A stretch of DNA of 64,000 bases from the IMG/VR virus record IMGVR_UViG_3300045015_000053; one strand, written 5' to 3'. The notes under the pieces are model-generated. The model was not told where the DNA came from and ran no database searches. It was given only the letters and a program-made list of their open reading frames with translations. The position numbers and the translations under genes are program-made. Below are positions 8,574-53,871 of this stretch, one piece after another. The number at the start of each line of letters is the position of its first letter. Position 1 is the first letter of the stretch. Source of the stretch: a virus. Taxonomy: Duplodnaviria; Caudoviricetes.

Positions 8574-8577
8574 TTTT

Positions 8578-8610
8578 GTACCTCCGAAGCAATTTTTGCT
8601 TCGGAGGTAC
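8578..8610. repeat. 14-bp perfect inverted repeat covering the GGAGG upstream of the HNH gene
   Basis: GTACCTCCGAAGCA-ATTTT-TGCTTCGGAGGTAC. Confidence 0.85.
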
Positions 8611-8622
8611 TCGTTTACAGGT

Positions 8623-9099: not shown

Positions 9100-9313
9100 G
9101 GGCGGCATACGTTCGGCTCTGGGGATCGTCGGGGATCTGATCGACGCATCCGACTACGAAGGCGCGGCGAGCATTCAAGTCGTAATCGCCCAAGACGAGC
9201 AAACGCTCGCCGAGTTGAGAGAAAAACTTGAACTCGTCAGTGACGAGGACGAGTTCAACAAAATGGCAGACCACTTTGAGGGTGAAGTGGAAGAGGAACC
9301 GTTCCTCGAATAG
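9026..9313 (+). CDS. hypothetical protein
   Basis: ATG at 9026 overlapping the HNH 3' end in another frame. Confidence 0.55.
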   Translation: MLPTSRWKLRQTLIKVYQSKIEHLEGGIRSALGIVGDLIDASDYEGAASIQVVIAQDEQTLAELREKLELVSDEDEFNKMADHFEGEVEEEPFLE

Positions 9314-9315
9314 AA

Positions 9316-18384: not shown

Positions 18385-18522
18385 ATGTGCAAGAGGAAGC
18401 AGGCCGTTCGCCGTCAGTTCCGTGACGGCACCTTCAAACGCGACAAGTTTCGTTGCGTCTGTTGCGGCTTCGCGTCAACTCCCGAACGTGCCGAGAACGA
18501 GCTTGACGCTCACCACATTACT
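18385..18522 (+). pseudogene. 5' half of an interrupted HNH endonuclease
   Basis: not in the track: MCKRKQAVRRQFRDGTFKRDKFRCVCCGFASTPERAENELDAHHIT. Confidence 0.7.
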
Positions 18523-18548
18523 TGTTCAGGCATGTTGCTATATATGGC

Positions 18549-19553
18549 ATGAAAAATTTTCGTTCATGGTTTGAAGAGAACCAAGGTTTGAATGGTTGGG
18601 AAATTCACTCCCATTTGACCAAAATGCGTCGAGACTCGCCGGAGGATTTCCGAAATTATGGACTACCGTATACACAGGGCATGATTGTTCACAATGACGG
18701 AAATGTCTATGAAAAGAAATGGGATGCTAGTTTAGACAGGAAAAAATGGAGTCATGTAGATGACTCTACTCCCAAAAAGACTCCTGAAAATGAAGAGCAT
18801 TTCGCCCGTGACAAATACGGTCATGAGGTAGTAAATCACCATGAATTGTATAGGAAAAAAGCAATTGAAGAAGTTTCAGACAAGGTGAAGATCGTTGGAG
18901 GTCACGATCTGAGTCAGATTAACGGCCGAGTTCCCAGAGGAACCAAACCATCTCCAGATAAAGTTTGGGAAACAGCAATACAGTACGGTACTAACCTGAG
19001 AATGCTTTCAAATGATAAAGGCGAAGTAATTATTGGAGGGGCAAACGCTCATATGTATCTTCCCAATAGATATACGTTTTCTGGTAGCGGTGAATTATTC
19101 TACATGCGTTGGTTCATTAATCCAGATTCAAAAATGATAACTCTCAGTTCAACCGATGTAGGTAGCAAAGACGAAACAGTTAAAGCGGAGTTTTGGAAAC
19201 GACCTGACAAGTTCATAAATTTGACGTTGCGATCTCTTGTGGATTCGGGGTTGGTTAATGGAGGCTGGAGGGTGGAAGCGGGTACGCAGGCTCATGCTCT
19301 TGGTGCGCCATTGAAGACGGTTGGAGATTGGTTAGGTTTTAAGTCAAAAGCCGACATTGATGCTGATCTCGCTCGAAAAGCACAAGAAAAATTCGACAGG
19401 GACGCCGAGTATAGAGCCACTTGGCCAGCGAGACGGTATATGAGAGAATTAATGCGACGAGGTGAAGGCCCGTGGCACTTACCTCGGGGGGAAGCTCACC
19501 AATGGTCATTTGCCAAATATGTCAGTCTTAGAGAAAACATGGTGCTATCATGA
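18549..19553 (+). CDS. AT-rich hypothetical protein, putative virion internal protein
   Basis: MKNFRSWFEEN N-terminus; CTATATA at 18538; visibly lower GC than the flanks. Confidence 0.7.
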   Translation: MKNFRSWFEENQGLNGWEIHSHLTKMRRDSPEDFRNYGLPYTQGMIVHNDGNVYEKKWDASLDRKKWSHVDDSTPKKTPENEEHFARDKYGHEVVNHHELYRKKAIEEVSDKVKIVGGHDLSQINGRVPRGTKPSPDKVWETAIQYGTNLRMLSNDKGEVIIGGANAHMYLPNRYTFSGSGELFYMRWFINPDSKMITLSSTDVGSKDETVKAEFWKRPDKFINLTLRSLVDSGLVNGGWRVEAGTQAHALGAPLKTVGDWLGFKSKADIDADLARKAQEKFDRDAEYRATWPARRYMRELMRRGEGPWHLPRGEAHQWSFAKYVSLRENMVLS

Positions 19554-19592
19554 TGTTATGGAAAAGATCGTACTGTTTTGTTTGGTTCTGAA

Positions 19593-19626
19593 ATAAAAAG
19601 CCCCGAGTCATCTCGGGGCTTTTTAT
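19593..19626. terminator. bidirectional intrinsic terminator
   Basis: ATAAAAAGCCCCGAG-TCAT-CTCGGGGCTTTTTAT. Confidence 0.85.
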
Positions 19627-19680
19627 TACGCTTTGACCACGATTTCTGTCTTGAAGTCGTTGAGTCCGCTGTTCTTCAGT

Positions 19681-19881
19681 CTTCGCGACGAGATGCCCAA
19701 CGGCGGGTACGTCAAAGAGAATGGCGTGACGCTGTGCAAAGGTGATGACGGAACGTCTTGCCACGAGAAGGCGGAAATGGTATTACAGGGGATCGACATT
19801 CCGGGGTTCTCCCCGGACGACCTCTACACCCTGATCGGTTCCGACCGGGACCGAGCATTCCAAGAGAGCGAGAAGTTATGA
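19681..19881 (+). pseudogene. 3' half of the interrupted HNH endonuclease
   Basis: RDEMPNGGYVKENGVTLC...CHEKAE continues the HHIT fragment. Confidence 0.7.
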
Positions 19882-20747
19882 CGACTGCCATCGCCAGCCC
19901 CGACCGCATGACCGACGACGAGTTCAAGAGCTTCTTCCTCGAAAACTCCGTCAGCCCGAACGACGACGACGATCCCGCCGCCGTTCTCAAGAACTACATC
20001 CGCACGCGCAACGAGACGATCTTCAAGGCGACCGAACTCGGCATCGGCGAAGCCGGCCTCCAAGAGATCAAGTCGAAGGCCGCGAACGCCTTCCTCAAGC
20101 GGTGGATGATGCTCCGGTTCGCCACCGTCGATCTGTCCTTCACCGACCGCAAGTGGTGGCTGAAACTCGAACGCGACACCAACGGCGTCAAGGTCGTTCA
20201 GGCATCGCACGAACCCATCGACGTGACCGGCGATCCGGCCTTCTTCACCGTCGCCGAGATCAACCGCTTCTTCAAGGTCGAGACGAACGCCGAGGAGTTC
20301 GCGTTCGGCAAGAAGATCAGCGACAAAAAGGCTCACCAAAGCAATGGCGGTTTCGCTCCGACACGCAAGAACGGCGGCATGCCCCGCACTAACCTGACCA
20401 TTTCGGCGGTTCTGCCGGACGGGATCGGCCAGAAGCAGATGAAGAAGGCTCAGGTGGCAATCGGCCACAAGCACTTCGCCCGCGCCGTCTGCTACTGCCA
20501 CGGCATCGATCTCGAAGCCGATCTGGGCCGCACACGGTGGGATCGGCGCGACTCAACCGTCTCGGTAATCTGGGGGCCGAACGCGGACGTTCTCAGCTTC
20601 ACCCAGACGCCGCCGCGTCCGGCCGGTGACCCCGCCATCGTCATCGACATCGGCGAGGAAACGTACCTGCTGGACTTCTACGACACGCCGGACGAACTCC
20701 CGATCAGCAACCTGATTCGCGAGTTCAGCGAAGGGAAGCTTCGCTAA
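19878..20747 (+). CDS. hypothetical protein
   Basis: ATGA overlap; strong GC3 bias. Confidence 0.75.
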   Translation: MTTAIASPDRMTDDEFKSFFLENSVSPNDDDDPAAVLKNYIRTRNETIFKATELGIGEAGLQEIKSKAANAFLKRWMMLRFATVDLSFTDRKWWLKLERDTNGVKVVQASHEPIDVTGDPAFFTVAEINRFFKVETNAEEFAFGKKISDKKAHQSNGGFAPTRKNGGMPRTNLTISAVLPDGIGQKQMKKAQVAIGHKHFARAVCYCHGIDLEADLGRTRWDRRDSTVSVIWGPNADVLSFTQTPPRPAGDPAIVIDIGEETYLLDFYDTPDELPISNLIREFSEGKLR

Positions 20748-20796
20748 AATATGAAGGACGCCCGACATTCGGGCGTCCTTCAAGCTAGGAGAAGTT

Positions 20797-21075
20797 ATGC
20801 GGAAAATCATCGTCGCCTTGATTTTGGCTCTGGTGTTGGCCTGTCTGATTGGTTGTGGTCCACAACCACCGGCCGCTCATGCCGAGCCGGTGCAAGAGGC
20901 CAACATCACGAAAATGTTGCCGCACGGTTATACCAACCTCAAAAAACTGGGCAACCAGTGGTTCTCATACGACCTTGAGGTCGGCGGCAAGAAACGTCAA
21001 TTCATGGTCCGGTATTCGACTGGCTCGCACGGAGAGTACAGTCTTGCCGTGACCGAACTACACGAAGGGAAGTGA
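20797..21075 (+). CDS. putative lipoprotein
   Basis: signal peptide with lipobox-like LIGC. Confidence 0.65.
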   Translation: MRKIIVALILALVLACLIGCGPQPPAAHAEPVQEANITKMLPHGYTNLKKLGNQWFSYDLEVGGKKRQFMVRYSTGSHGEYSLAVTELHEGK

Positions 21076-21078
21076 CTT

Positions 21079-21916
21079 ATGGGAGCCGCAATCGTTGAAG
21101 GCGGTGTTGACACCCGTCAAGTAGGATGGGACAGCATCCGGGTGCTGTCCTCGACCGACAAGAACGTAAAGAAGTACGTCTTCGAGAAGGGGGATGCCGT
21201 CGCCGAGTCGGTACTGTACAAGTACCCCGACTACGAAACCCGCACCGTCATCTGCTGCTCAACTCAGAGCGGCTGTCCGGTCGGCTGTCGGTTCTGCGGC
21301 GCGGGCGACAACTTCGTGCGGTCGCTGACCAGCGAAGAGATCTTCTCGCAACCGAAGCGGTTGCTGGATGACACGGGTGTCGATCCGACGAAGATGGGCC
21401 GACTCCAGATCATGTTCATGAGCATGGGCGAGCCGTTGCTCAACCAGAACAACTTGATCCCGGCCCTGTACCGTCTGCACGAGAAGTACCCGAACGCCGC
21501 CCTGTTGATTTCTACCAGCGGCCCGCGAGTCGGTTACGGTCGAATCCGCGACGTGTCGGTGGCGATCCCGACCATCGGCCTCCAGTTCTCGATTCACGAA
21601 AGCACGGACGAGGCGCGAAACAAGCTGATCCCGTTCGAGAAGAAGCTGACGCTGACAGAGATCGCGGCCGAGGGCAAGCTGTGGTACGAAGCAACGGGCC
21701 GCACACCGTTCTTCAACTACTGCGTCCACGACAAGAACAACACGCCAGAAGACGTGGAACGGCTCACCGCCCTGTTCGATCCCGACATCTGGCAGGCGAC
21801 GATCTCCGTGATCTGCGAGCGTGACGAATACGTCGCGGCGGCGAACGCCCGTCAGAAGGCTCTGGCAGACGATTTCCGGGGTGGTCTGATGAGCAAGGGG
21901 TTCCGCACTCGCGTGT
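21079..21916 (+). pseudogene. RlmN/Cfr-like radical SAM protein, C-terminally truncated at an inversion breakpoint
   Basis: CCSTQSGCPVGCRFC (CxxxCxxC) and MSMGEPLLN; after RTRVF the frame reads antisense sequence and no GxCGQL motif follows. Confidence 0.7.
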
Positions 21917-22340
21917 TTGAAGATGCCGAACGACGCGCCGGATTCGAGGCCGAGCATCTCCCGCTTCACGAAGTCGAGAGCGTTGCGTACCGCGTCGTGG
22001 CAAGCGTCCTGACGGGTGTGGGGGTCCATGTTCAGGACGTTCCAGACCTCGCTGATCTGGCCGATCCCGATGCGACTGTAGAAATCCAGAGCCGCCACAA
22101 GGATCGCACCCTGTTCGGCCGTGACTTCCAGCGTGAATTTCTTCTCTTCCGGCATGATCGGCCTCACACTTTGGTGCCGCGAGATTTGAGGAACTTGACG
22201 GCCTCGCCGTCCCACTTCTCCAAGTTCATCGCCCGCAGCCTCTCCACGTCAATGAAGGCGTTGGTGTAAGCGTGCGGGTGCTTGACGAACGTTTCTGCTA
22301 CGGCCCGCGAAACCTCGCGGGCGTACAACTCGCCGTTCAA
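21917..22340 (-). other. ~420-bp inverted block containing two gene fragments
   Basis: flanked by TTGAA/TTCAA; the minus strand encodes ...LNGELY...GTKV* and MPEEKK...GASFGIF. Confidence 0.7.
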
Positions 22341-22647
22341 CAGCAAGGTGCCTGAGCGGTACAAGACCGCGTGGGATCTCCAGCAGGTGATTCGGCACGT
22401 TCTGGCGTGGGACGCGAACCCGGAAGGCGGGTTCGGTGTCAATTTCCACGAGCCGCTGAAATCGGGCAAGCACGGCCTTGCTACAATGAAAGTATCCGAA
22501 CAGTGGCTGCGGGAGATGGCCGAGAAGGAAGACAACGGCATCATCTCTGTCGGCGGTCTGGTAACAAGAATGAGGCAAGCCAATGATCCCGCCGTCAATC
22601 CTGATGCTGGACATGCTGAAACCGAACGGAAAACCACCGAAGAATGA
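22341..22647 (+). pseudogene. 3' part of the gene whose 5' part lies in the inverted block
   Basis: NSKVPERYKTAWDLQQVIRHVLAWDANPEGG joins in frame to GASFGIF on re-inversion. Confidence 0.65.
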
Positions 22648-22738
22648 ACCGTGGTGGCAGACCGCGATCACGGTCGTACTCCTGACGGCCGTGCTGATCG
22701 GCACGCTCGTCGGCGCGATCTACTTGATGAAGCATTGA
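22613..22738 (+). CDS. 41-aa membrane peptide
   Basis: not in the track: MLKPNGKPPKNEPWWQTAITVVLLTAVLIGTLVGAIYLMKH. Confidence 0.5.
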   Translation: MLKPNGKPPKNEPWWQTAITVVLLTAVLIGTLVGAIYLMKH

Positions 22739-22739
22739 G

Positions 22740-23186
22740 GTGAACGTGAGCATACGGTCCTACGATCTGAGCGGCGATCAAGCCGCCGAACTGATTCTTG
22801 CCCTCAACGGTGACGCAGAGAAACGCGAGAAATGGTTGAGGCAGTTACGCAAGTGGGTCGCCTACCGTGATCTCAAGCTGAAGATCCTCGGTTTGACGGA
22901 GAATTGGCTCAAAGCCTTCGGTTTGAAGAAGGGCGTTCACGTCGGTCGGGAAGATTGGCAGAGCGACGAAGAAAACCTTCTGGACTGGGTGTACTACCAG
23001 ATGGAGTACATGAGTGGCTTGACATGGGACGAAGCGACGAAAAGTGTGATCATCAACAAGTACGCTTCGAGCCGCCCGCTGCTGCGGGACGAAGAGACAA
23101 AAGAACTCTTGGAATTTTTGACGTTGGAAATTGGCAAGGATACTGTATATAATGAACTGACGGCCCATCCGCCGGCGCGGTGTTAG
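22740..23186 (+). CDS. hypothetical protein
   Basis: 148-aa ORF. Confidence 0.6.
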   Translation: MNVSIRSYDLSGDQAAELILALNGDAEKREKWLRQLRKWVAYRDLKLKILGLTENWLKAFGLKKGVHVGREDWQSDEENLLDWVYYQMEYMSGLTWDEATKSVIINKYASSRPLLRDEETKELLEFLTLEIGKDTVYNELTAHPPARC

Positions 23187-23230
23187 AGCTTCTACCTCTG
23201 ACTGGACGGGTTCAACTCCTGTATGGGCTT
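23162..23230 (+). tRNA. non-canonical compact tRNA-like gene, Arg anticodon UCU
   Basis: GGCCCAT|CCGC-CGGC-GCGG|T|GTTAGAG-CTTCTAC-CTCTGAC|TGG|ACGGG-TTCAACT-CCTGT|ATGGGCT|T. Confidence 0.75.
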
Positions 23231-23237
23231 CTTGACT

Positions 23238-23308
23238 GCCGCTATCGTATAGTGGGATTACCCTTGTCTTGTAAACAAGTGACCTCAGTTCGATTCTGAG
23301 TAGCGGCT
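23238..23308 (+). tRNA. tRNA-Thr(UGU)
   Basis: acceptor GCCGCTA/TAGCGGC; CTTGT-CTTGTAA-ACAAG; T-loop TTCGATT. Confidence 0.9.
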
Positions 23309-23319
23309 CTGATTGATTT

Positions 23320-23390
23320 GCCAGCATCGTATAGTGGTATTATGCTTGTTTCGTAAACAAGTGACCTGAGTTCGATTCTCAGTGCTGGCT
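23320..23390 (+). tRNA. tRNA-Thr(CGU)
   Basis: acceptor GCCAGCA/TGCTGGC; CTTGT-TTCGTAA-ACAAG; near-duplicate of the preceding tRNA. Confidence 0.9.
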
Positions 23391-23471
23391 CTGTACCCCT
23401 CCCGTGGATAGAATCGCGGGACCATCACCTCGGTCTAAACCACCGAGGTGATTCTTTTGGTAGAATTCATC

Positions 23472-26953: not shown

Positions 26954-27661
26954 ATGCACACAACAAAAACACGTTTGAGACGTTGGTTGAAAGAAAGGTC
27001 GTCTTTTCTTGCTGCGATCAAGAGCAAGGGAGGCAAGTGTCAGAAATGTGGCGAAGACCACATTGCAGTTTTGGATTTTCATCATCGTGATGGTGACGAG
27101 AAAGAAGCACATGTTTCTTCGCTCGTTAGGAAGCCCAAACAAAAAGAAAAACTAGCTGCCGAATTGTTGAAATGCGATCTTTTGTGTTCAAATTGTCACC
27201 GCAAAGAGCATTTTGACAAATCAAAGTGGGATGCTCACGCCGAGGAAATTGAGCGTAGAGCAACTGGTTGGAAGCCAAAACGCGATCCGGTTTGCAAACG
27301 TGTATCCAAAGATGAGATTTCAAGTATTCGTCTTTGGATTGGCGAAGGATTGTCTTTTGAAAAGATGGCTAACCGTCTTGGTAGGAACCCAAGCGGGATG
27401 CGACGATCTGTCGTGAGACTTTACGAAAAAGGATTGCTCCCTGAATTTGCCTCTTATATTAGACCTAAAAGGGCAAAGAAGACGCGGGCCGATCAAAAAG
27501 AAGCAAAGCGTCTTTGGGAAGAGGGTCATACTGTTGCCGAGATAGCTTTGCTTCTCGGATGTGGCATTCGTGCAGTTTATTCTGCACTAAGGGGTATCAA
27601 AAATGGCGAACAAGAATCTCTTCAAGTCGAAGTCTCCTCTGGCGAACCTCAAGCCGTGTAA
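26954..27661 (+). CDS. HNH homing endonuclease with C-terminal HTH repeats
   Basis: KCQKCG...VLDFHHR...KCDLLCSNCHRKEH, then HTH-like segments; lower GC. Confidence 0.85.
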   Translation: MHTTKTRLRRWLKERSSFLAAIKSKGGKCQKCGEDHIAVLDFHHRDGDEKEAHVSSLVRKPKQKEKLAAELLKCDLLCSNCHRKEHFDKSKWDAHAEEIERRATGWKPKRDPVCKRVSKDEISSIRLWIGEGLSFEKMANRLGRNPSGMRRSVVRLYEKGLLPEFASYIRPKRAKKTRADQKEAKRLWEEGHTVAEIALLLGCGIRAVYSALRGIKNGEQESLQVEVSSGEPQAV

Positions 27662-29396
27662 TGCGGTGAATGAGGCTGGAGGAAAGGCGTATAAGCTGTC
27701 TGACCGTCAGGCTCTTAGCCAGTACGTCGCGACGGGCTGCTTCAACAGCACCTACTACGTCTCTGCGGAGACGCAACTACAGACCGTCCTCGAACTCGCC
27801 AACAAGGTCGAGCCGGGGTTCCTCGCGCGTGCGGCCCTGTACGGACACCAGAAGTCGTACATGAAGGACGTGCCGGCGTTGCTGGCGGCGGTACTCGCGT
27901 CCCGCGACGAGAAGACGCTGAAGAAGGTGTTCTCGAAGGTGATCGATTCGGGGAACATGCTGCGCAACTACGCACAGATGATCAAGAGCGGCGTGACCGG
28001 CCGCAAGTGCCTCGGTACGGCCAGCCGCAAGCTGGTCGGCAAGTGGTTCAGCGACCGCACCCCGGAGAACGTGTTCCACCAGAGCATCGGGAACGACCCG
28101 ACGTTGGGCGACGTGATCCGCATGGCGCACGCGAAGCCGGCGTCCCCGCAGCACGCGGCACTGTTCGCGTACCTGACCGGCGCAAAGGTCGAGACGGTCG
28201 AGGGGCGTAAGCTCCTGCGGACCCCGTACCTCGATGAGTCGAAGGTGCAGAAGTACCTCGAACACCCGTTCGACAACCTGCCGGAACTGGTGAAGCAGTT
28301 CGAGGCGTGGAAGGCTGACAACAGCCAGACGATGCCGAAGCTGAACTTCCGGTTCCTCGACGGCGCGGGCAAGCTCACTCTGGACCAGTGGAAGGAGATC
28401 GTTCGCAACGCGAACTGGCTGACCACGCTGAAGTCGCTTCAGTCGTGGGCGCGGCGCGGCGTCTTCGCCGACAAGGACATGACCAAGCTGGTTGCCGACC
28501 GGCTGCGTAACCCGGAACTGGTGAAGAAGGCCCGCGCCTTCCCGTACCAGATCATGATGGCGTACCTCGCGACGGACGCCCCGTCGCAGTACACCACCAA
28601 CTGGGGCCGCGCGTCCTCTTCGGAGGCAACGCCGGTGCCGCCGGAAGTCAAGAACGCACTTCAGGACGCGATGGAAGTCGCGACCCAGAACGTTCCGAAG
28701 ATGTCGGACGACGCGGTCTACGTCTGCCCGGACGTATCCGGCAGCATGTCGAGCGGTTCCGTCACGGGCAACCGTGGCACGGCAACCTCCCGCGTGCGGC
28801 CAATCGACGTGGCGGCACTGATGGCGGCGTGCGCCCTGCGTACCAACCCGAACGGCGAGGTGATCCCGTTCGAGGGGGCGGTGGTAGACGTGAACCGCAT
28901 CCGGCTCAACAGCCGGGACAGCGTCATGACGAACGCCGAGAAGCTGTCCAAGATCGGCGGCGGCAGCACGAACTGTGCCGCTCCCCTGCACCTTCTGAAC
29001 CAGCGGAAGGCGAAGGGCAAGGTCGTCATGTACATCTCCGACTACGAGTCGTGGGTGGACACCGGAACCGCCGCTCGCTACGGCAGCGGGGCTGCGGACA
29101 TGCTCGCGGAGTGGGAGATCTTCAAGAAGCGGAACCCGGACGCGAAGCTGATCTGCATGGACATGACCCCGCGTACCACCGCGCAGGTCACGACCCGGAA
29201 GGACATCCTTCAGGTCGGCGGGTTCAGCGACAACGTGTTCAACGTGGTGGACTCGTTCCTCCGTGCGAACGACAGCGAGGACTACTGGGTCAAGCTGATC
29301 GAAAGCATCGACCTCGACGCGCCGGTTGACACCCGGCCGGCGAAGGCCGAGGCGTCGGAAGAAGACGTTCCGTTAGCCGAAGCCGTGGAGGAATAA
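27603..29396 (+). CDS. TROVE-domain Ro60/Rsr-like RNA-binding protein with vWA domain
   Basis: NEAGGKAY...LSQYVATGCFNSTYY...YMKDVP...FPYQIMMAY...CPDVSGSM...ISDYESW. Confidence 0.92.
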   Translation: MANKNLFKSKSPLANLKPCNAVNEAGGKAYKLSDRQALSQYVATGCFNSTYYVSAETQLQTVLELANKVEPGFLARAALYGHQKSYMKDVPALLAAVLASRDEKTLKKVFSKVIDSGNMLRNYAQMIKSGVTGRKCLGTASRKLVGKWFSDRTPENVFHQSIGNDPTLGDVIRMAHAKPASPQHAALFAYLTGAKVETVEGRKLLRTPYLDESKVQKYLEHPFDNLPELVKQFEAWKADNSQTMPKLNFRFLDGAGKLTLDQWKEIVRNANWLTTLKSLQSWARRGVFADKDMTKLVADRLRNPELVKKARAFPYQIMMAYLATDAPSQYTTNWGRASSSEATPVPPEVKNALQDAMEVATQNVPKMSDDAVYVCPDVSGSMSSGSVTGNRGTATSRVRPIDVAALMAACALRTNPNGEVIPFEGAVVDVNRIRLNSRDSVMTNAEKLSKIGGGSTNCAAPLHLLNQRKAKGKVVMYISDYESWVDTGTAARYGSGAADMLAEWEIFKKRNPDAKLICMDMTPRTTAQVTTRKDILQVGGFSDNVFNVVDSFLRANDSEDYWVKLIESIDLDAPVDTRPAKAEASEEDVPLAEAVEE

Positions 29397-35096: not shown

Positions 35097-35179
35097 CGCT
35101 CTTATTTAGCCAGTTGACTGCGAAGAAAACGTGGATCGAAACGGGACTTCATGTTACAATAAGTCTCAAGGAGGCACCG

Positions 35180-35671
35180 ATGAAATACTACACCCCCGAA
35201 ATGGTCAACCGCTGGAACGGCGACAAGCTCGGTCTGAGACAGGCCGAGTTCGACGCCGAATGGGACAAGGCTCAGACCGAGTACGAGGAGCATTTCGCCA
35301 AGCTCAAGGATCTTCCGCTTTCCGTACAAAAACTGCACGACGGCGCGGTCCTTTATGGCGAGCGGCTGATCTCCCTTCCGAAGCCCGAAGGGTATCAACG
35401 CGGCGAAGACTTCGTGATCGTAACTGGCGACGAACGCGATGGTGTAAACCACATTTTGGTCTATACTGTCGAAAAGCCGCCGGTCGTGAGGGTTCACGAG
35501 GGGGTCGGGTTCGACCCCGCAACCACGCCCGGCGTCTGGCTTTACGACGAGTTCGGTGTCGATGCGGACGGTGCGTTCACGCACAATACGATCTTCACCA
35601 ACGGCATCGAAGTGGAAGTGACGTTCAAGTCGATGCACTGGATCGAGGCGGTCACACAGGAATCCGGGTGA
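35180..35671 (+). CDS. hypothetical protein
   Basis: AAGGAGG RBS. Confidence 0.7.
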   Translation: MKYYTPEMVNRWNGDKLGLRQAEFDAEWDKAQTEYEEHFAKLKDLPLSVQKLHDGAVLYGERLISLPKPEGYQRGEDFVIVTGDERDGVNHILVYTVEKPPVVRVHEGVGFDPATTPGVWLYDEFGVDADGAFTHNTIFTNGIEVEVTFKSMHWIEAVTQESG

Positions 35672-36036
35672 TGGAAACGAAACAGGTAATTCTGATTCGC
35701 CGCGACCTGAAAATGCGTCGGGGCAAAGAAATCGCGCAGGGGGGCCACGCTGCGTCGTCCTTCCTCGCCGAGATCGTCAGAACGGGCCGAGAGGTCACGC
35801 TCGCGGAACGGGCGTGGCTCGACGGGCTTTACAAGAAAGTCTGCTTGGTGGTCGAATCCGAAGCGGAACTCCGCGAACTACATGAGAAGGCACAGGCGGC
35901 GGGCCTGACCTCCCACATGATTTTGGATTCGGGTCTGACGGAGTTCGGCGGCGTGCCTACACCGACATCGTGCGCCATCGGGCCAGCCGAGGAAAGTGCG
36001 GTGAACGCGATCACCGGCCACCTGAAGCTTTACTGA
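35671..36036 (+). CDS. pth2: peptidyl-tRNA hydrolase type 2
   Basis: KQVILIRRDLKMRRGKEIAQGGHA...KKVCL...ILDSGLTEFGG...CAIGP. Confidence 0.92.
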   Translation: METKQVILIRRDLKMRRGKEIAQGGHAASSFLAEIVRTGREVTLAERAWLDGLYKKVCLVVESEAELRELHEKAQAAGLTSHMILDSGLTEFGGVPTPTSCAIGPAEESAVNAITGHLKLY

Positions 36037-37695: not shown

Positions 37696-38586
37696 TTAGT
37701 CGTGGTGCTTTTGATTGGCCGCACTCAGGTATCCGTCGTCTCTCTCGGCCCGGCTTCTGAAGCGGTGCTTGGTCAAGAACTTGCCGAACTTGGCGAGCCG
37801 TCCACGCGGGTTCGGGACGTGAGCCTGTCCGAGACTCGGCAGTAGGTGTTCGAGTTCCTTGAAGTCGTGCCATTTTTTACCGTCGAACCCGGCGATCCAA
37901 ACGCTCGTGTCATCTCGAATGACGCCCTTCGCGGCGAGCTTGGCGAGATCCTCAAACTTCACGTCCACCTTACGCCCGAATGCGTTGATGTAAGCCGCGT
38001 TTTTGCCGGCGAATTCCTCGGCACCCAAAGTCGGTGTTGTAGCCGCGACGTACTGGTGCATGTCATCTTGCACGTCTTTGTGTTTGTACGGCAGCCAATC
38101 GTCGTATCCGTACCGCTTTACCATCGTGTCGGGTTTGATCCACCTTTTGGCGACCGCGTCAGCGAACTCTTTAGACCCGACGAATTTGTAGGCGTGTCCG
38201 TCGAGGTAGGCCCACCACACCGTCTTGTCGTTCGCCACGCCCTTGCTGACCCGGCTGAAAGGGAGGTACTTCTTGGCGTCTTTGATCTGGTTCCAGTTTT
38301 GCTCACCTTGTACCCAAATCATGTCTTCGGGATGAACTTGGTTGATCCGGTACAACTGAACGATTTTGATGCCGTCCATTTGCACCGGGTTGACGCCGTC
38401 TTCTCGCGGCTTGTCGGGCCGGTACAACCAGAACATGCCGCGCTGGTCTTTTCGCTTGCCGCGTTCGCCGAGGCCACCCTTGATCGCGCCGTAAGCAGCA
38501 CCGCCCAACGCGGCGGCGGCGAGTGCCGTACCGACGATTTCGTCCAGTTGCCGCTTCTCTTTCCCCCATTTCACGAATGATTCCAT
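37696..38586 (-). CDS. protein with repeated GYF_2/DUF4339-like domains
   Basis: repeats INQVHPEDMIWVQGEQNW, IKPDTMVKRYGYDDW, IRDDTSVWIAGFDGKKW. Confidence 0.65.
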   Translation of the reverse strand: MESFVKWGKEKRQLDEIVGTALAAAALGGAAYGAIKGGLGERGKRKDQRGMFWLYRPDKPREDGVNPVQMDGIKIVQLYRINQVHPEDMIWVQGEQNWNQIKDAKKYLPFSRVSKGVANDKTVWWAYLDGHAYKFVGSKEFADAVAKRWIKPDTMVKRYGYDDWLPYKHKDVQDDMHQYVAATTPTLGAEEFAGKNAAYINAFGRKVDVKFEDLAKLAAKGVIRDDTSVWIAGFDGKKWHDFKELEHLLPSLGQAHVPNPRGRLAKFGKFLTKHRFRSRAERDDGYLSAANQKHHD

Positions 38587-38669
38587 TTTGCCTCTTTGCA
38601 GAACAACACAAGCTCGCTAGTATATAGTCCGAAGGGTCACATTCTGCCCTGTTTCAACCGGAGGCAATC

Positions 38670-39448
38670 ATGTCGAAGAAAAACCAATCAGCGAGGTGGC
38701 TTTGACCCTGTAAAGGGTCAGGAAACCCATTCCCAGGCTGCCTCCTGGCTTTGACCACGCCAACGAAATCATCCTCGAAGTCCTTTATGGCGAGGGTGGT
38801 ACTGACTCGAAACTCTTCGTCACCGATCTCGGCGATCTCTACGTCAAATATGCCGCCCGCAAGGGTCTGGCGTGTGAGCTTTTGACCGAAGACGACGGAC
38901 ACGTCACCTTCAAGATCAAAGGCAAGAAAGCCGCGTGGCACTTCCGTCACGAGGCAGGCAAGCACTGCGTTCAGCGGGTTCCCCCGACCGAGCGTAACGG
39001 CCGGCGTCAAACGAGCTTCGTGAACGTCGCTATCCTGCCGATCCTTCCTGAGTACACGAAAGTGACACTCAGGGACAACGACCTCGAAGAGAAGTTCCAG
39101 ACTGGGCGTCAAAAGGCCGGGGGCCAAAACGCGAACAAAGTCGCTTCCGCCGTGCGACTGAAGCACAAGCCGACCGGCCTCTGCGTGTTCATCAACGGCC
39201 GCGATCAGGGGCAGAACCGCGAGGAAGCTCGCCGCATCCTGACGGCCAAAGTGAACCAGCAGAAGATCGAGAAGGAACGCGCGGCCGAGGTCGGGATGAG
39301 GGAAGACTTCCTGAAGAATCGCGGACGCGGGGACAAGATCAGGACGTACAACTTCATCATCAACGAGGTGACGGACCACCGACTGGATCGTTCTTCCAAG
39401 AACATCAAGGCGGTGATGAAGGGCGATCTGGACGAAGTCATCGGATAA
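38670..39448 (+). CDS. class I peptide chain release factor, RF1-type (PxT), lacking domain 1; needs two +1 frameshifts
   Basis: IILEVLYGEGG...QRVPPTE...AGGQNANKVASAVRL...KIRTYNF; no in-frame start before 38882; CTT-TGA-C at 38700 and 38749. Confidence 0.85.
38691..38756 (+). promoter_or_regulatory. tandem prfB-like +1 frameshift signals
   Basis: GAGG-TGG-CTT-TGA-C (SD 3 nt upstream of CTT) and a second TGG-CTT-TGA-C 49 nt downstream. Confidence 0.8.
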
Positions 39449-39513
39449 TCGAGCCGAACAAGACAGAAGGCACGAGTTATAATGACTCGTGTCTTCTTTT
39501 TTTTGAGGTCGAT

Positions 39514-39877: not shown

Positions 39878-40591
39878 GTGATGCCTACCAAAACCGAATA
39901 CCAGAAACGCAAACAAAACAATCTCTGTTTACGTTGTGGTAAAACGCCATTGGATTCCAAAAACGTTTGTCAAAAGTGCATAGACAAGGCGATGGCGAAG
40001 TATGCCGCAAAAAAACAAGCAAAAGTTTGTGTAAATTGTAGTCGGCCCGCTCCAAATGGAGCCAGATGTGTCGAGTGCGCAAAGGTCCACAAAAAAGTTG
40101 CAGATCGAAGACGGATTACAAAAAGAAAAACATCAATTTGTTTGATTTGCCCGACTCAAACAAATGGCTCTGCCTATTGTGATTCTTGTTTGGCGAAGAA
40201 TAGGGCCAAGTGTCGCCGGAAGCGAGAATCGGGATTGTGTCGCAATTGTTCCAAAAAGGCTATTCCGGGGAAAGCAAGATGTGAAGAATGCACGCAGACA
40301 AATCGCGAGAGCATTCTCAGACTCAGGGATAAAGTGTTCGCTGCGTATGGAGGGGCAAGATGTAATTGTTGTGGAGAAACGACAGTAGAGTTTTTGGCAT
40401 TAGATCACATAAACAACGATGGTGCCGAACACAGACGAAGTTTGCGTGAGAACAGCGTCTATCGTTGGGTTAGTAAAAACGGGTTCCCTGCCGGTTTTCA
40501 GGTACTGTGCCACAATTGCAATTGGGGCAAACATATTTGTGGTGGAGTCTGCCCACATCAGAGGAAAATTCATGTCGAACATCATCAATGA
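39878..40591 (+). CDS. HNH endonuclease with tandem Cys-rich repeats
   Basis: multiple CxxC...CxxC units; RCNCCG...LALDHINNDG...QVLCHNCN. Confidence 0.85.
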   Translation: MMPTKTEYQKRKQNNLCLRCGKTPLDSKNVCQKCIDKAMAKYAAKKQAKVCVNCSRPAPNGARCVECAKVHKKVADRRRITKRKTSICLICPTQTNGSAYCDSCLAKNRAKCRRKRESGLCRNCSKKAIPGKARCEECTQTNRESILRLRDKVFAAYGGARCNCCGETTVEFLALDHINNDGAEHRRSLRENSVYRWVSKNGFPAGFQVLCHNCNWGKHICGGVCPHQRKIHVEHHQ

Positions 40592-42683
40592 TCTGGTCCA
40601 GAAGAAACTTGCTCACCCACCTGCGTGGCTTAGTTCCAATACCCATTATCTAACGATGATGGGTTCGGTGGCCTACGGGGTGAGCAGCGACACGTCCGAC
40701 ATGGACCTGTACGGCTTTTGTCTGCCGCCGAAGGAAATCGTCTTCCCGCACTTGTCGGGGGAGATTTTCGGTTTCGGCACGCAGAAGAAGCGGTTCAACC
40801 AGTGGCAGCAGCACCACATCAAAGACCCGTGTGCGATGCAAGGGAAGGGACGGCAGTATGACCTCACGGTCTACAACGTGGTGGATTACTTCAATCTGTT
40901 GATGCAGAACAACCCCAACATGATTGACAGTATTTTCACGCCCGACAACTGCGTGTTGCACATCACGCGGATCGGCACGATGGTTCGCGAGAAGCGACGG
41001 ATGTTCCTCCACAAGAAGTGTTGGCACACCTTCAAGGGGTACGCCTACGCTCAGATGAAGAAGATCCGCAACAAGGAGCGTGAGTCTTCGTCGCGGCGCG
41101 ACCTGATCGAGAAGTACGGGTACGACTGCTATCTTGATTCCGAAACTGAATTTCTTACTGAAGCCGGCTGGAAGAAGTACGACGATGTGGAGGCCGACGA
41201 TTCTCTGGCAGTGGTAGATCCGTCAACGGGGAAGATCGGATGGGAAAATTACACCGAACGCATCGACAAGCCTTTCTCCGGTCCCATGTACGTCGTAGAA
41301 CCGGCGATGAGCAGGTGTGTGGTTACGCCCAATCACCACATGCTCGTTTCACCCGCACGTCGCTCGGAGGCGACTAACTTTTCATACCGTTATTTCGAGG
41401 ATAAAGCGGACTGGAATTTGGTTCCTTTCTCAACCCTTATGACTGGATCGAGGTCGTGGTTTCACACACGTCGCCGTGTGGAAGGCAACTGCTTCGACTA
41501 TTCCGGTGTCACCGACGAGTATTTGGTTTTGGCCGGTCTGTATATTGCCGAAGGCACCATCAACTTCAGGGATGGCAAGGTCAAGACCGCAAGACTGACC
41601 CAGACGCCGAATGGGAAGCAAGAGTTTTTCGAGATGGCTGATCGTATTGCTAGTGCCTTCGACATGAAGCGATACGACTACGACAAGGAAACAGTCTGGA
41701 CCGTTGAGCGTGCTACCGCCGAAAAACTCTATACGGATTTCGGACATGGTTCTGGTAGCAAGAGGCTCCCTCTGTGGTGTTACAAGTTGTCCGAACGACA
41801 GGCTTCCATTCTTTGGAAGAATGCCTGTCTCGGAGACGGAACTCCTACGCCAAACGGCGAAGTCTACTACACCAGTAACGCTGCACTTGCTGGCGATGTG
41901 CAGGCTATGTTAACATGCGCCGGCGTACTGTGTTCTGTACGCGGGCCTTACAGTTACGAGCGAAACGATGAATGCTTCGGTAACTGTGACATGTATCAGG
42001 TGTATCGGCCTTCGGACCAGTACGCCTACTCCTGCGTAGATTTCAAGAACAGGATTCAGAAATCCGATGATGAGGCGACTGAGGTGACGGGCGATGTTCG
42101 TGTTGATGGCCTCCGTCATTTCACAGAAGATGACGACCCCAAAACAAGCTGGCCCATCAAGGAACGTATTGTTCAAGAAGAACGCATCGTGTGTTTCCAA
42201 GTCCCATCGGGAACTTTGATCACTCGAAGTAAGGGCCGAGTCGCCCTGCATGGCAATACGAAGTTCGCATACCACCTTGTTCGTCTGATGAACGAAGTGG
42301 AACAGATCATGGTCGAACACGACCTCGATCTGATGCGGAACCGCGAACAGTTGAAGCAGATCCGCGCCGGGTGCTGGACCGAGGAGCAACTTGAGGACTA
42401 CTTCGCCAAGAAGGAAGTATCCCTCGAAGAGACGTACAACAAGAGCGATCTCCGTTGGGGACCGGACGAGCCGGCCATCAAGGAACTGCTCCTGAACGTG
42501 CTGGAAGAACACTACGGCAACCTCGACAAGTGCGTCATCCGTCAGGACGCGGTCGTGACTGCCCTCCGCAACGTGATCGGCGCGGCTGATGAAGCCCGCC
42601 GCGTACTGGAGCAGATCACATATGAAGAACCTGCTGAGGCGGGCGGCGAACAGTCTGAACAGGCTGTGGCACCGACTGAGTGA
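40572..42683 (+). CDS. Pol-beta superfamily nucleotidyltransferase interrupted by an intein
   Basis: MMGSVAYG...SDMDLYG...NNPNMID...FKGYA; KYGYD|...|TKFAYHLVRL. Confidence 0.88.
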   Translation: MSNIINDLVQKKLAHPPAWLSSNTHYLTMMGSVAYGVSSDTSDMDLYGFCLPPKEIVFPHLSGEIFGFGTQKKRFNQWQQHHIKDPCAMQGKGRQYDLTVYNVVDYFNLLMQNNPNMIDSIFTPDNCVLHITRIGTMVREKRRMFLHKKCWHTFKGYAYAQMKKIRNKERESSSRRDLIEKYGYDCYLDSETEFLTEAGWKKYDDVEADDSLAVVDPSTGKIGWENYTERIDKPFSGPMYVVEPAMSRCVVTPNHHMLVSPARRSEATNFSYRYFEDKADWNLVPFSTLMTGSRSWFHTRRRVEGNCFDYSGVTDEYLVLAGLYIAEGTINFRDGKVKTARLTQTPNGKQEFFEMADRIASAFDMKRYDYDKETVWTVERATAEKLYTDFGHGSGSKRLPLWCYKLSERQASILWKNACLGDGTPTPNGEVYYTSNAALAGDVQAMLTCAGVLCSVRGPYSYERNDECFGNCDMYQVYRPSDQYAYSCVDFKNRIQKSDDEATEVTGDVRVDGLRHFTEDDDPKTSWPIKERIVQEERIVCFQVPSGTLITRSKGRVALHGNTKFAYHLVRLMNEVEQIMVEHDLDLMRNREQLKQIRAGCWTEEQLEDYFAKKEVSLEETYNKSDLRWGPDEPAIKELLLNVLEEHYGNLDKCVIRQDAVVTALRNVIGAADEARRVLEQITYEEPAEAGGEQSEQAVAPTE
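41127..42257 (+). mobile_element. intein (377 aa) with LAGLIDADG-type endonuclease
   Basis: N-terminal CYLDSETEFLTEAGWK, TPNHHM block B, LAGLYIAEG and CLGDG motifs, C-terminal HGN followed by Thr. Confidence 0.92.
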
Positions 42684-47921: not shown

Positions 47922-48425
47922 ATGAAGATCCAAGTTCTGGTCGGGATGATCGCGTCCGGCAAATCGACCTACGCGAAGAATGCGGCGCGGTCGGGCCTTC
48001 TGTGCGTCAACGACGACGCCATAGTCAACATGCTGCACGGCGACGACTACTCGCTCTATAGCACCGCTCTCAAGCCACTCTACAAGACACTCGAAAACAC
48101 CGCGATCTCCACCGTACTTGCGATGGGGAAAACAGTCGTCGTTGACCGTGGGCTGAACGTGAGCTTGGAAGGGCGTCAGCGGTGGCTGGCTCTCGCCAAG
48201 AGTTTCGATGTTCCGTGCGAGGCGGTCGTCTTCGACCACGACGGCGTCACGACACACGCCGAACGTCGCGCCAAGTCCGACTCTCGCGGTCACGACATCG
48301 AATACTGGAAGCGTGTCGCTTTCATCCACAATTCCGTCTACAAAATGCCCACCGTCGAAGAGGGGTTCGATAAAATCCATCGGATCTCTTTCGATGAAAT
48401 CACAGCCGGGAAGGTAATCCAATGA
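47922..48425 (+). CDS. P-loop kinase (AAA_33/polynucleotide kinase-like)
   Basis: GMIASGKSTYA; VVVDRGLN. Confidence 0.8.
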   Translation: MKIQVLVGMIASGKSTYAKNAARSGLLCVNDDAIVNMLHGDDYSLYSTALKPLYKTLENTAISTVLAMGKTVVVDRGLNVSLEGRQRWLALAKSFDVPCEAVVFDHDGVTTHAERRAKSDSRGHDIEYWKRVAFIHNSVYKMPTVEEGFDKIHRISFDEITAGKVIQ

Positions 48426-49279
48426 CCGCACGCTCACTGTCGGGTCGGCCAGTCGCGGACTCCATCGAAGCAGAAATCGCCGTAGAAACGCGGCGATTTC
48501 TGCTTGAAGAGGGTCGCAAACCTTATCTCGCAGTCGTAGTCGTTGGGAACGACCCGGCCAGTCAGATCTACGTCAACAAAAAACGAGAAGCCTGCGAGCG
48601 GGTCGGCGTCCACTGTTGTATTCACCACTTGCAGACGACGGCAGACTTGATTGCCAAACTCGACAGTCTTTCGGAAAACGACGGGTGCGACGGGATCATT
48701 CTGCAACTCCCGCTGCCCGGCGGCGAAAGCCCGGCACCGTACTTCAATCACATCGTCTCTTCCAAAGACGTTGACGTTTTCTCCCCGACGAGCGTCGGCC
48801 TGTTGGACCAGGGCAGGTTCGACTGGGAGCCGTGTACCCCTTCGGCCGTGATGCGGATTCTCAAACACTACGAAATCCCTACGGCCGGCAAGGAAATGGT
48901 GATTTTGAATCGCAGTTGGGTGGTGGGTCGCCCGCTGATGGGGATGGCGGTACACAAAGGGGTGGACGCGACGGTCACGGTGTGTCATGATATGACTCCC
49001 GCCGCGAGTACGGCGCGGCACTGTCGCGAGGCCGACATCATCGTCGTGGCGGTCGGTAAACCGGGGTTTCTGACTTCTGACATGGTGCGACCGGGTCAGA
49101 CGGTGATCGATGTCGGGATCAATCGCATCGACGGCAAGGTGGTCGGAGACGCCGCCGCATCGGTGGCCGAGGTAGTTGAAAACTTGACCCCCGTTCCCGG
49201 TGGCGTCGGGCCGGTCACGGTCGCGTGTCTGATCGAGAATGTCGTTCACGCCGCTTCTATTCGTTCCAAACGTAGTTGA
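48422..49279 (+). CDS. folD: bifunctional methylenetetrahydrofolate dehydrogenase/cyclohydrolase
   Basis: PASQIYVNKK...DGIILQLPLP...KDVD...PCTP...IDVGINR...TPVPGGVGPVT. Confidence 0.95.
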   Translation: MTARSLSGRPVADSIEAEIAVETRRFLLEEGRKPYLAVVVVGNDPASQIYVNKKREACERVGVHCCIHHLQTTADLIAKLDSLSENDGCDGIILQLPLPGGESPAPYFNHIVSSKDVDVFSPTSVGLLDQGRFDWEPCTPSAVMRILKHYEIPTAGKEMVILNRSWVVGRPLMGMAVHKGVDATVTVCHDMTPAASTARHCREADIIVVAVGKPGFLTSDMVRPGQTVIDVGINRIDGKVVGDAAASVAEVVENLTPVPGGVGPVTVACLIENVVHAASIRSKRS

Positions 49280-49496
49280 ATTATGCCGGACACATTCACA
49301 GATTGCAGAACGACCGAGGGCGTGACTGTTGGTTTGGTTGACGCTTTGATTTCGATTGCAAGAGTCCTAGCAAGCAGACATTTGACTTCACCCGAAGTAA
49401 CCGAAGCTTTGTGTGATTTGGCCGACGACGAGGACGTTCAACGTTTGTTTACCAAAGCTTCTGAAGTTGCTTCTATCCGCAACCGGAGGTAATGCC

Positions 49497-50495
49497 GTGG
49501 GCATCAAGATTTTCGGTCTGGACTCTTCAAGAGACTACGCGGCCAAAGTCGCCGCCGAGGTCGGAGTTCCGCTCTCGAACAAAGTCGAAGACTACTTCGA
49601 GGACGGCGAGGCGACTCTTCGCAGCGAGGTGAACGTTCGCGGTCAGGACGTTTACGTTGTCGGCTCTCTGCACACCTGCGAAAAGGAACGGGTCGCCGAC
49701 AAGATCGTGAAGATGCTGATGTTCATCGGCTCGCTGCGTGACGCATCCGCCAGACGCATCACCGCCGTCGTGCCGTACCTCGCCTACCAGCGGCAGGACC
49801 GCAAAACGGTCAGCCGTGCGCCCATCGTGACCAAGTACCTCGCGAAGTGGCTGCAATCCGTCCAGCTTGACCGGCTGCTGACGATTGACACCCACAGCCT
49901 TCAAGCCCTTCAGAACTCTTTCGACAAGACGATCACCGACCACCTCGAAGCCAAACGGCTTCTGGCGACATACGTTGCCGAAAACATCACCAACCCTGAC
50001 CGCATCTCGGTGATGTCGGCCGACATCTCGGCGATGAATCGCGCCAGACTGTTCCGCAACGTGTTGGCGTCCATCTTCGTGGCACGCCGTGTGCTTCCGC
50101 CGGACTTCGAGATCCCGCTGTGCGTGATGGACAAGACGCACGTCGGCCGGGTGATCGAGGGACACATGATCGTGGGCGACGTGAAAAACCGAGACGTGAT
50201 CATCGTGGACGACATGATCGCCAGTGCCAAAACGATGGCCGAAGCTCGAAAAGGCGTACTGGACAATCAGGGTCGCGTCTGGGGTGCGTGTGCCACCCAC
50301 GGCCTTTTCGTGGGCAAGGCGAACGAAAATCTGGCCGGGTTCGACCGGATCATCGTCAGCGATTCGGTGCGAGCCGGCTACCGGCTCAACCCGCAAAACG
50401 CCCAAAAACTCGTCACGATTTCAACGGCCAAACTGTTCGCGGACGCCATCAAACGCATTAACGAGGAAGGTTCGATCAGTGACTTGCTGTCCTGA
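49497..50495 (+). CDS. prs: ribose-phosphate pyrophosphokinase
   Basis: FEDGE...VVPYLAYQRQDRK...IVDDMIASAKT...CATHGLF. Confidence 0.93.
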   Translation: MGIKIFGLDSSRDYAAKVAAEVGVPLSNKVEDYFEDGEATLRSEVNVRGQDVYVVGSLHTCEKERVADKIVKMLMFIGSLRDASARRITAVVPYLAYQRQDRKTVSRAPIVTKYLAKWLQSVQLDRLLTIDTHSLQALQNSFDKTITDHLEAKRLLATYVAENITNPDRISVMSADISAMNRARLFRNVLASIFVARRVLPPDFEIPLCVMDKTHVGRVIEGHMIVGDVKNRDVIIVDDMIASAKTMAEARKGVLDNQGRVWGACATHGLFVGKANENLAGFDRIIVSDSVRAGYRLNPQNAQKLVTISTAKLFADAIKRINEEGSISDLLS

Positions 50496-52593: not shown

Positions 52594-53871
52594 ATGGCAA
52601 AAAACCGCAAGAACAAAGTCGCAGAACCGCACTGCGACTTCTGCAAGCAACCCAAGTCCGAATGCGGGGGCCACCTGATCGAAGGGCCGGGTTCTCTAGG
52701 CAACGGGCGCAACAGCGGGGAGGACACCGTCTGGATCTGCCCCACCTGCATCGGCACCTGCGCTGCGATGCTCAACAAGGCCGGGATTGAGTTCGCGGCC
52801 AAAGAGGAAGAGAACGCTCCGCTGCCGGCTCTCAACGTCCCCGACCCGCGTGAGATCAAGAAACATCTCGACAAGTTCGTCATCGGTCAGGACCATGCCA
52901 AGCGGATCATGGCGGTGGCCGTAGCGAACCACTACAAGCGGCTCGTTTCGACACCCGGCGACTACCTGAAGGATGTCGAGATCGAAAAGAGCAACATCCT
53001 GATGGCCGGGCCGACCGGCAGCGGCAAGACCCTGCTCGCCCGCACCCTCGCGAAGACGCTCAACGTGCCGTTCGCCATCGGTGACGCCACCGCGATCACT
53101 GAAGCCGGCTACGTCGGTGAAGACGTGGAGAACCTGTTGTTGCGACTCATCCGCGCGGCAGACGGCAATCTGGTGGCGGCACAACGCGGCATCCTCTACA
53201 TCGATGAGATCGACAAGATCGGCCGCACCAACCAGAACATGAGTTTGACCCGCGACGTGTCGGGCGAAGGTGTTCAGCAGAGCCTCCTGAAGATGATCGA
53301 GGGGACTATTTCCAACGTCCCTCCGCAGGGCGGGCGGAAGAACCCCGAAAGCAACTACATTCAGTTCGACACCAGCAACGTGCTGTTCATCTGCGGCGGC
53401 ACGTTCTGCGGCCTGAGCGACATCGTGAAACGCCGCGTCGGACGCGGGTCGATGGGGTTCCTCGCGCAGTCGAAGTCGGGTGAACTGACTGACGATGAAC
53501 TGCTGCGTCAAGTCACCACCGAAGATCTCGTTGAGTTCGGGATGATCCCCGAATTCATCGGCCGGCTGCCCGTCCGCACCTCGCTCGACAAGATCACCGA
53601 AGACGGGCTGATCAAGGTTCTGACCGAGCCGAACAACGCGATCATCAAGCAGTACCAGAAGATCTGCCACATGGACAGCGTTTCGCTCAAGTTCGATGAC
53701 GACGCCGTCCGCGAGATCGCCAAACAAGCCCTCGAACGCGACACCGGGGCGCGTGCCTTGCGGGGCGTCGTGGAAGAAGTCATGCTGGACCTGATGTTCG
53801 ACATCGCCGACCACAAGGGTAGCGAGATCGTCATCACCGGCGAACGGGTTCGTCAAAAGAAGGCGGCGTGA
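52594..53871 (+). CDS. clpX: ATP-dependent Clp protease ATP-binding subunit ClpX
   Basis: Zn-binding CDFC; GPTGSGKT; TEAGYVGEDVE; RDVSGEGVQQ; GARALR. Confidence 0.97.
   Translation: MAKNRKNKVAEPHCDFCKQPKSECGGHLIEGPGSLGNGRNSGEDTVWICPTCIGTCAAMLNKAGIEFAAKEEENAPLPALNVPDPREIKKHLDKFVIGQDHAKRIMAVAVANHYKRLVSTPGDYLKDVEIEKSNILMAGPTGSGKTLLARTLAKTLNVPFAIGDATAITEAGYVGEDVENLLLRLIRAADGNLVAAQRGILYIDEIDKIGRTNQNMSLTRDVSGEGVQQSLLKMIEGTISNVPPQGGRKNPESNYIQFDTSNVLFICGGTFCGLSDIVKRRVGRGSMGFLAQSKSGELTDDELLRQVTTEDLVEFGMIPEFIGRLPVRTSLDKITEDGLIKVLTEPNNAIIKQYQKICHMDSVSLKFDDDAVREIAKQALERDTGARALRGVVEEVMLDLMFDIADHKGSEIVITGERVRQKKAA

Follow-up and report, generated by a model that had tools for sequence, protein, structure and literature searches.

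How could a 258-aa release factor be made from a phage gene whose own reading frame is closed by a stop codon near its 5' end and offers no ATG, GTG or TTG until the middle of a domain? The question is raised by a locus at positions 38655-39448 of the window, by which we mean the whole 64,000-nucleotide stretch of DNA that was analysed, itself part of a 188-kb IMG/VR virus record from lake water that is estimated to be 37% complete. An initial annotation of this DNA proposed that the product depends on two tandem +1 frameshift sites resembling that of prfB or, alternatively, on a single hop of 50 nt. We consider a programmed tandem +1 frameshift gene for a phage mini release factor to be the best explanation of the locus, with a probability of about 85%.

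Anatomy of the putative doubly shifted gene

All features described here lie on the plus strand. A GGAGG Shine-Dalgarno (SD) sequence (38660-38664) stands 5 nt upstream of an ATG, from which a leader of 11 codons is read in frame 0 (MSKKNQSARWL, 38670-38702), the last codon being the slippery CTT of shift site 1, CTT TGA C (38700-38706). The bases that lead into this site are GAGG, TGG and the CTT itself, forming an internal SD-like GAGGTGG (38693-38699) whose GAGG is separated from the CTT by 3 nt, in the prfB register. Read on in the +1 frame, the sequence translates as a middle segment of 16 codons (38704-38751; DPVKGQETHSQAASWL), which arrives at shift site 2, a second CTT TGA C (38749-38755). 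One further +1 step opens the release-factor body in the +2 frame (38753-39448), which begins DHANEIILEV and consists of 231 codons followed by a TAA (39446-39448). Upstream of site 2 this frame is shut by a TAA at 38711-38713, and its earliest ATG, GTG or TTG is the mid-domain TTG 38882; the 188-aa ORF that starts there is all that gene callers would report. In all these respects the initial annotation proved accurate: the ribosome-binding site, start, leader and first site agree base for base, as do the middle segment, the second site and the closed factor frame. Immediately 3' of the gene, a sequence scan picked out a terminator-like hairpin with a T-run (39465-39505), and a strict sigma-70 promoter scan 5' of the gene returned no match.

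The two sites lie within the 11-bp direct repeat that had been described, with its copies 49 nt apart. The 11-mer TGGCTTTGACC is found in the window only at 38697 and 38746, against an expectation of 0.05 copies, while the bare heptamer CTTTGAC is not enriched (11 occurrences against 10.5 expected); what marks the locus is therefore that the sites stand in tandem and in phase, and not the frequency of the word. At both sites (38700-38706 and 38749-38755) a slippery CTT-T has a stop as its following in-frame codon, and both read TGA C, with a C directly 3' of the stop. The claim that the sites share the geometry of the RF2 site holds for site 1, with its SD-like element at prfB spacing, but not for site 2, where the bases before the CTT are gctgcctcctgg and include no SD-like element, so that the efficiency of slipping at site 2 may be low.

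A CCAGG/CCTGG hairpin had also been noted between the sites. Its stem (38733-38737/38744-38748) is indeed present in the minimum-energy fold, but the RNA folds of 38650-38790 and 38700-38800 are not significant (z = -1.87). Separately, a 9-bp hairpin with a GUAA loop (38701-38722; UUUGACCCU / AGGGUCAGG) begins inside shift site 1, and it is absent from the relatives described below. Given the z-score and the lack of conservation of the site-1 hairpin, we rejected RNA structure as the stimulator of the shifts. A T3 run falls short of the length at which transcriptional slippage is known to occur.

Reliability of the sequence and genetic code of the phage

Logan contigs from three sequencing runs (X1, X4 and X7), covering 38602-38994, and one from a fourth run (X8), covering 38561-38711, show 0 differences and 0 gaps relative to the window. 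A 151-nt contig from a fifth run (X9), which belongs to another study and another year, covers 38678-38828 with both sites included; it is free of indels and departs from the window by a single substitution, 38774 C>A, which replaces Leu by Ile in the release-factor frame. Given that five independent run assemblies are concordant, one of them representing a strain variant, we regard an assembly indel, a possibility that the initial annotation had singled out for checking against reads, as very unlikely.

Gene prediction with code 11 gives a normal coding density, 81% of the 188-kb record being covered by 262 genes, whose stops are TGA in 153 cases (58%), TAA in 72 and TAG in 37. No suppressor tRNA is present among the 50 tRNAs found in the record. 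On these three grounds, normal density, TGA as the commonest stop and no suppressor tRNA found, we rejected an alternative genetic code: TGA is a genuine stop in this phage, which uses the standard code. Neither a second release-factor gene nor any convincing further prfB-like site was found across the 188-kb record, and a nucleotide search against phage records gave no match.

The body encodes an RF1-like factor without domain 1

RF1, the prfA product, has an N-terminal domain 1 and a full length of about 360 aa. The predicted product of the phage gene has 258 aa, and both profiles and an AlphaFold (AF2) model assign its body to release-factor domains 2-4. Pfam recognises the second half of PCRF (profile positions 96-194 of 194; 85.2 bits) and the complete RF-1 domain (74.6 bits). 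The NCBIfam prfA model scores 207 bits against a cut-off of 400 (NF001859), TIGR00019 gives 195 bits against 423, and prfB reaches only 160.6 bits, under the prfA score. Both RF1 scores thus fall below the equivalog thresholds; the profile match starts at position 99-108, domain 1 being absent, and we attribute the shortfall to the missing first ~100 residues. The NCBIfam model of prfH is matched weakly and below its threshold (44.8 bits against a cut-off of 166.65). In a search of the PDB the body matches RF1 structures, and the AF2 model, built on 45 relatives and with a pLDDT of 92.4, superposes in Foldseek on ribosome-bound RF1 with a TM-score of about 0.8; the score for RF2 is slightly lower and that for PrfH is 0.61.

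The residues with which RF1 reads stop codons are also recognisable. The PPT tripeptide (38981-38989), the PxT-type 'anticodon' of RF1, lies within VQRVPPT, where the RF1-type Gln stands three residues before PxT, in agreement with the RF1-type assignment first made from QRVPPTE; the body further has the Thr-Ser of the HTS motif and GGQ, the peptidyl-tRNA hydrolysis motif (39119-39127). From its sequence, then, the predicted product is an RF1-like mini factor and not an orthodox prfA.

Among the relatives, GGQ is kept in 60 of 61, and GGQ, the Gln before PxT and the Thr-Ser of HTS are all invariant or nearly so. Changes specific to the lineage include the Pro at the middle of PxT, a His to Gln replacement at body position 86 (35 of 61 relatives) and a GG-x-Asp-Ser-Lys sequence at the tip of helix alpha-5. 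A few relatives depart from PxT, among them L028 (metagenome contig Ga0066903_100879276; sites TGA,TGA) with SPT and L004 (IMGVR_UViG_3300017388_000001; sites TAA,TAG) with PHL, and these replacements may point to a changed stop-codon specificity.

Conservation of single and double shift sites

A scan of viral, metagenome and genome collections yielded about 160 loci, or 61 after removal of duplicates. The 61 non-redundant domain-1-less factors, which come from huge phages, form one clade (support 100/99), apart from full-length bacterial RF1. Two shift sites precede the factor in 29 of them, as in the window, and one site in 30, while the remaining two have an in-frame TGA instead; the factor-adjacent site is present in 59 of the 61. 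The architecture from which the initial annotation derived a factor of ~258 aa thus recurs in relatives, and the retention of sites in homologues, which it had named as a check, extends to all but two of them. Because about 60 related genes of phages retain the design of one or two slips, we conclude that it represents genuine recoding rather than an error.

The details of the design are equally recurrent. The slip motif is CTT-T-stop at 85 of 88 sites and GTT-T-stop at the other 3, with a C after the stop at 68 of the 88, and site 1 of the window is matched by the first sites of the 29 double-site relatives. An SD-like element lies 3-4 nt 5' of the first sites in 22 of 26 cases and within 3-5 nt 5' of the second sites in 17 of 26. 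Related leaders comprise 8-18 codons, begin MSK(K/H)N and start with an ATG preceded by an AAGGAG-type SD; a TATA(T/A)A-like -10 element is seen at only 21 of 59 loci. The nearest phage record, the 595-kb huge phage LR756511.1, has a factor of 50% identity and the same plan: AGGAGG-ATG with 11 codons, CTT TAA C, 15 codons, CTT TGA C and the body, with the factor frame closed three codons 5' of the second site.

We searched for every [C/G]TTT-stop, in any frame, within 130 nt 5' of the factor-adjacent site. Of the 31 upstream motifs, 30 are spaced from that site by 1 mod 3, and the exception overlaps the SD of L004. In the 29 double-site loci the distance between sites ranges from 31 to 70 nt, with a spacing of 49 nt in seven loci, the window copy among them. 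Between the sites, all 29 loci have a +1 frame free of stops and a factor frame interrupted by a stop; 17 of the 29 have an open zero frame. The conserved phase, the open +1 frame and the stop that would follow a landing on the second site argue that the middle segment is translated and that two separate +1 slips would be needed. Sequence evidence of this kind gives strong support to the reading of the locus as a predicted tandem +1 frameshift.

On the tree of the clade, changes between one and two sites number at least 5 and, most parsimoniously, 12. In several loci, such as L020 and L055 with a leader and a middle segment that both end in NRGCL, the second cassette nearly copies the first. 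Duplication of a 3n+1-nt unit leaves the frame undisturbed when the unit brings a slip site of its own, and we infer that double sites probably arise and revert in this way.

In the two relatives that have no CTT-T-stop, L010 and L018 (1440-1520), an in-frame TGA separates a short leader from the factor body, for example ATG AAG AAT CAG TGA AGA GGA, an arrangement that suggests either that readthrough of UGA acts as the gate or that the phage has recoded TGA.

Proposed mechanism and regulatory logic

From the anatomy of the gene we infer the following course of translation. Ribosomes would initiate at ATG 38670 and, on reaching CUU-UGA-C at 38700, the peptidyl-tRNA-Leu would slip from CUU to UUU, in competition with recognition of UGA and aided by pairing of the GAGG with the tail of 16S rRNA. 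After 16 codons in the +1 frame, a second slip at CUU-UGA-C (38749) would complete a 258-aa RF1-type factor comprising domains 2-4 with PPT and GGQ, whereas ribosomes that fail to slip would release peptides of 11 or 27 aa. The output would then be the product of two slip probabilities, each of which would fall as UGA termination speeds up.

In a host with the standard code, UGA is read by RF2 and TAA by both host factors. Given that the phage uses the standard code, both sites in the window compete with UGA termination, and since UGA is read by RF2 the window copy would report the capacity for UGA termination and not the factor's own RF1-type activity. The squared cross-regulation by RF2 that had been suggested is accordingly a plausible reading of the window copy, as it would follow logically from the combination of UGA,UGA with RF1-type residues. 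We stress that, judged by the stop codons at its sites, an 'RF2 sensor' would fit the window copy (TGA, TGA) and not the family as a whole, and that a UGA-gated RF1-type factor is not obviously useful.

Across the family, the stops at the 88 sites are TAG in 52 cases, TGA in 28 and TAA in 8. Their identity flips between near-identical factors (TAA in L008, TAG in L009; likewise in L011, L029 and L034) and they are mixed within single genes, as TAG+TGA, TAA+TGA or TGA+TAG. The choice of stop shows no correlation with GC content across the family, and in the family alignment no covariation with the residues of the decoding loop; the columns with the highest scores fall elsewhere than in the decoding elements, and phylogeny confounds them. 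TAA never occurs at the factor-adjacent site of a double-site gene and stands mostly at SD-assisted first sites, and this placement, together with its rarity, fits a kinetic race between slipping and termination. With stops that are mostly TAG, labile and without covariation in the decoding loop, the general principle appears to be that any stop may compete with the slip.

Would the mini factor, then, limit its own synthesis? The same anatomy would serve an autoregulatory loop if the factor read UGA besides UAG and UAA. All three stops are used by the family, even mixed within one gene; the decoding loop does not covary with stop identity; the lineage-specific changes (the middle Pro of PxT, position 86 and GG-x-D-S-K) lie near the decoding site; and the relative with SPT is one with TGA,TGA sites. 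Yet the RF1-type determinants, namely the Gln before PxT, the Pro and the Thr, are retained, and missing covariation is equally expected if the sites sense host factors. In the window the site stops are UGA, while the factor, by its PxT and Gln motifs, is of RF1 type. Judging from these motifs, the phage factor certainly could exert feedback on itself at TAG and TAA sites, and it could do so at TGA sites given a specificity broader than the motifs suggest. We consider a loop of this kind an unlikely account of the gene.

We put forward, tentatively, a different logic for the tandem +1 frameshift gene, in which the cassettes may be modular stop-codon sensors, multiplied by the frame-neutral 3n+1 duplication and joined as AND gates over the termination capacity of the host, so that the production of the factor would be timed. 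The window would then represent RF2 x RF2 and its relatives RF1 x RF2 or RF1 x RF1, and a domain-1-less factor would be made when host termination turns limiting. Were the factor able to read UAA, UAG and UGA alike, these cassettes would instead make its synthesis self-limiting.

Alternative readings of the locus

It could also be supposed that only one shift is used, translation starting in the middle frame at TTG 38596 or in the factor frame at a non-canonical ATT 38726 or CTG 38738, with the first ORF being merely an upstream ORF. In the window copy the middle frame is open upstream as far as TTG 38596 and site 2 is preceded by 13 open codons of the release-factor frame, as such starts would require. 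None of the three codons, however, has an SD at normal distance, the sole strong SD being that of ATG 38670. In most double-site relatives there is no middle-frame start 5' of site 1, and in many relatives the factor frame opens just 3-4 codons 5' of the site, which leaves no room for an alternative start. The best SD-like stimulators, moreover, are those of the first sites, where they would be pointless for a decoy ORF. We therefore judge the use of a single shift to be quite improbable.

Two frame breaks within 50 nt of each other near the 5' end of a gene, in which gene callers would find no ORF other than that from TTG 38882, might equally be taken for a sequencing or assembly indel or for a decaying pseudogene. 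This is contradicted by the concordance of the five run assemblies, strain variant included, by a body that is intact and highly conserved in GGQ, the Gln before PxT and the Thr-Ser of HTS, and by the recurrence of the breaks at one shared motif in 59 of the 61 relatives, and we hold an artefact or pseudogene to be very improbable.

The weakest alternative, to which we attach almost no probability, is the 50-nt hop, a single bypass resembling that of T4 gene 60, with take-off at the first CTT, landing at the second site and ~50 nt skipped untranslated: it draws on the identical CTT codons 49 nt apart, each followed by a stop, and on the small hairpin between them, but an untranslated gap needs neither the phase kept in 30 of 31 cases nor the frame open in 29 of 29, its size varies from 31 to 70 nt, a ribosome arriving on the second CTT would once more have a stop in its A site and would still have to slip by +1, 30 relatives have a single site, and the fold of the hairpin is not significant.

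Comparison with known systems

Frameshifting by +1 at a CUU-stop is the textbook mechanism of RF2 autoregulation. The prfB motif consists of AGGGGG, three nucleotides, CTTT, TGA and C; a survey covering over 12,000 bacterial genomes gives its stop as TGA in 98.6% of cases and otherwise as TAA, with no TAG among 8,164 prfB motifs, and reports prfA to be without programmed frameshift (PMC12421855). The phage gene shares with prfB the slippery CTT-T, the in-frame stop in the A site, the C after the stop, the short leader and, at site 1, the SD-like element 3 nt upstream. It differs in that its product is RF1-type and domain-1-less, in having two tandem cassettes, the second of them without an SD, and in belonging to a family whose stop is mostly TAG; and given UGA sites with an RF1-type product, the loop is not self-evidently autoregulatory. 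To our knowledge, tandem prfB-type slip sites would be very unusual for any gene.

Release factors carried by phages have been described before. Huge phages encode RF1 and RF2, with no mention of a frameshift (Al-Shayeb et al. 2020, PMC7162821), and in the TGA-recoded Jade phages RF1 is part of a code-change module, again with no mention of a frameshift (Borges et al. preprint 10.1101/2021.08.26.457843). The present gene resembles these in being a phage-borne class-I factor and differs from them in lacking domain 1. Since the phage uses the standard code, with TGA as the commonest stop, its factor does not belong to a TGA-recoding module.

The likeness to T4 gene 60 consists in a stop after a codon that is repeated downstream and in a gap of about 50 nt; the gap here, in contrast, appears to be translated, with its phase kept, its frame open and its length varying between loci. 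PrfH (RF-H), another release-factor homologue devoid of domain 1, acts in the rescue of damaged ribosomes. The phage factor is like it in having no domain 1 and in its RNA-repair-type neighbours; it differs from it in the much weaker match given above and in keeping the stop-reading residues of RF1.

We found no published description of a frameshift-gated phage release factor in the searchable literature, where the device appears to be undescribed. Its significance would lie in the use of the classic RF2 signal to gate an RF1-type factor in huge phages, with any stop codon and often in tandem, which suggests that phages may monitor or manipulate host translation termination. The cassettes are also natural, compact candidate sensors of RF1 and RF2 activity. 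For annotation, the consequence is that gene callers will truncate such genes or miss them.

Genomic neighbourhood and possible hosts

Around the factor, at window positions 27603-29396, 35131-36036 and 40419-42683, lie genes for a Ro60/TROVE-vWA protein, a PTH2 peptidyl-tRNA hydrolase domain protein and RlaP, a nucleotidyltransferase of RNA-repair pathways, which has 754 aa and looks split by an intein-like insert. With such neighbours, related to RNA and translation quality control, the factor may serve ribosome rescue rather than bulk termination.

Most of the 50 tRNA genes of the 188-kb record stand in one 40-kb cluster (G000:C1:56258-94936; window 5418-23391). Among the 50 found there is no tRNA-Leu, the slipping tRNA required at CTT-T.

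A frameshift-gated mini factor is also encoded on contigs of metagenome-assembled genomes assigned to Pirellulaceae or Mariniblastus (L103-L110) and to Parcubacteria (L102). These copies, binned with Planctomycetota (Pirellulaceae) and Parcubacteria, may derive from prophages, from phage contigs placed in the wrong bin or from a true cellular copy, and their binning is a possible hint as to the hosts.

The window further contains, at 48422-50495, 52594-53871 and 59013-60593, auxiliary genes of the huge-phage type, for FolD, PRPP synthetase, a ClpX-like AAA ATPase and a WGR-PARP-like protein.
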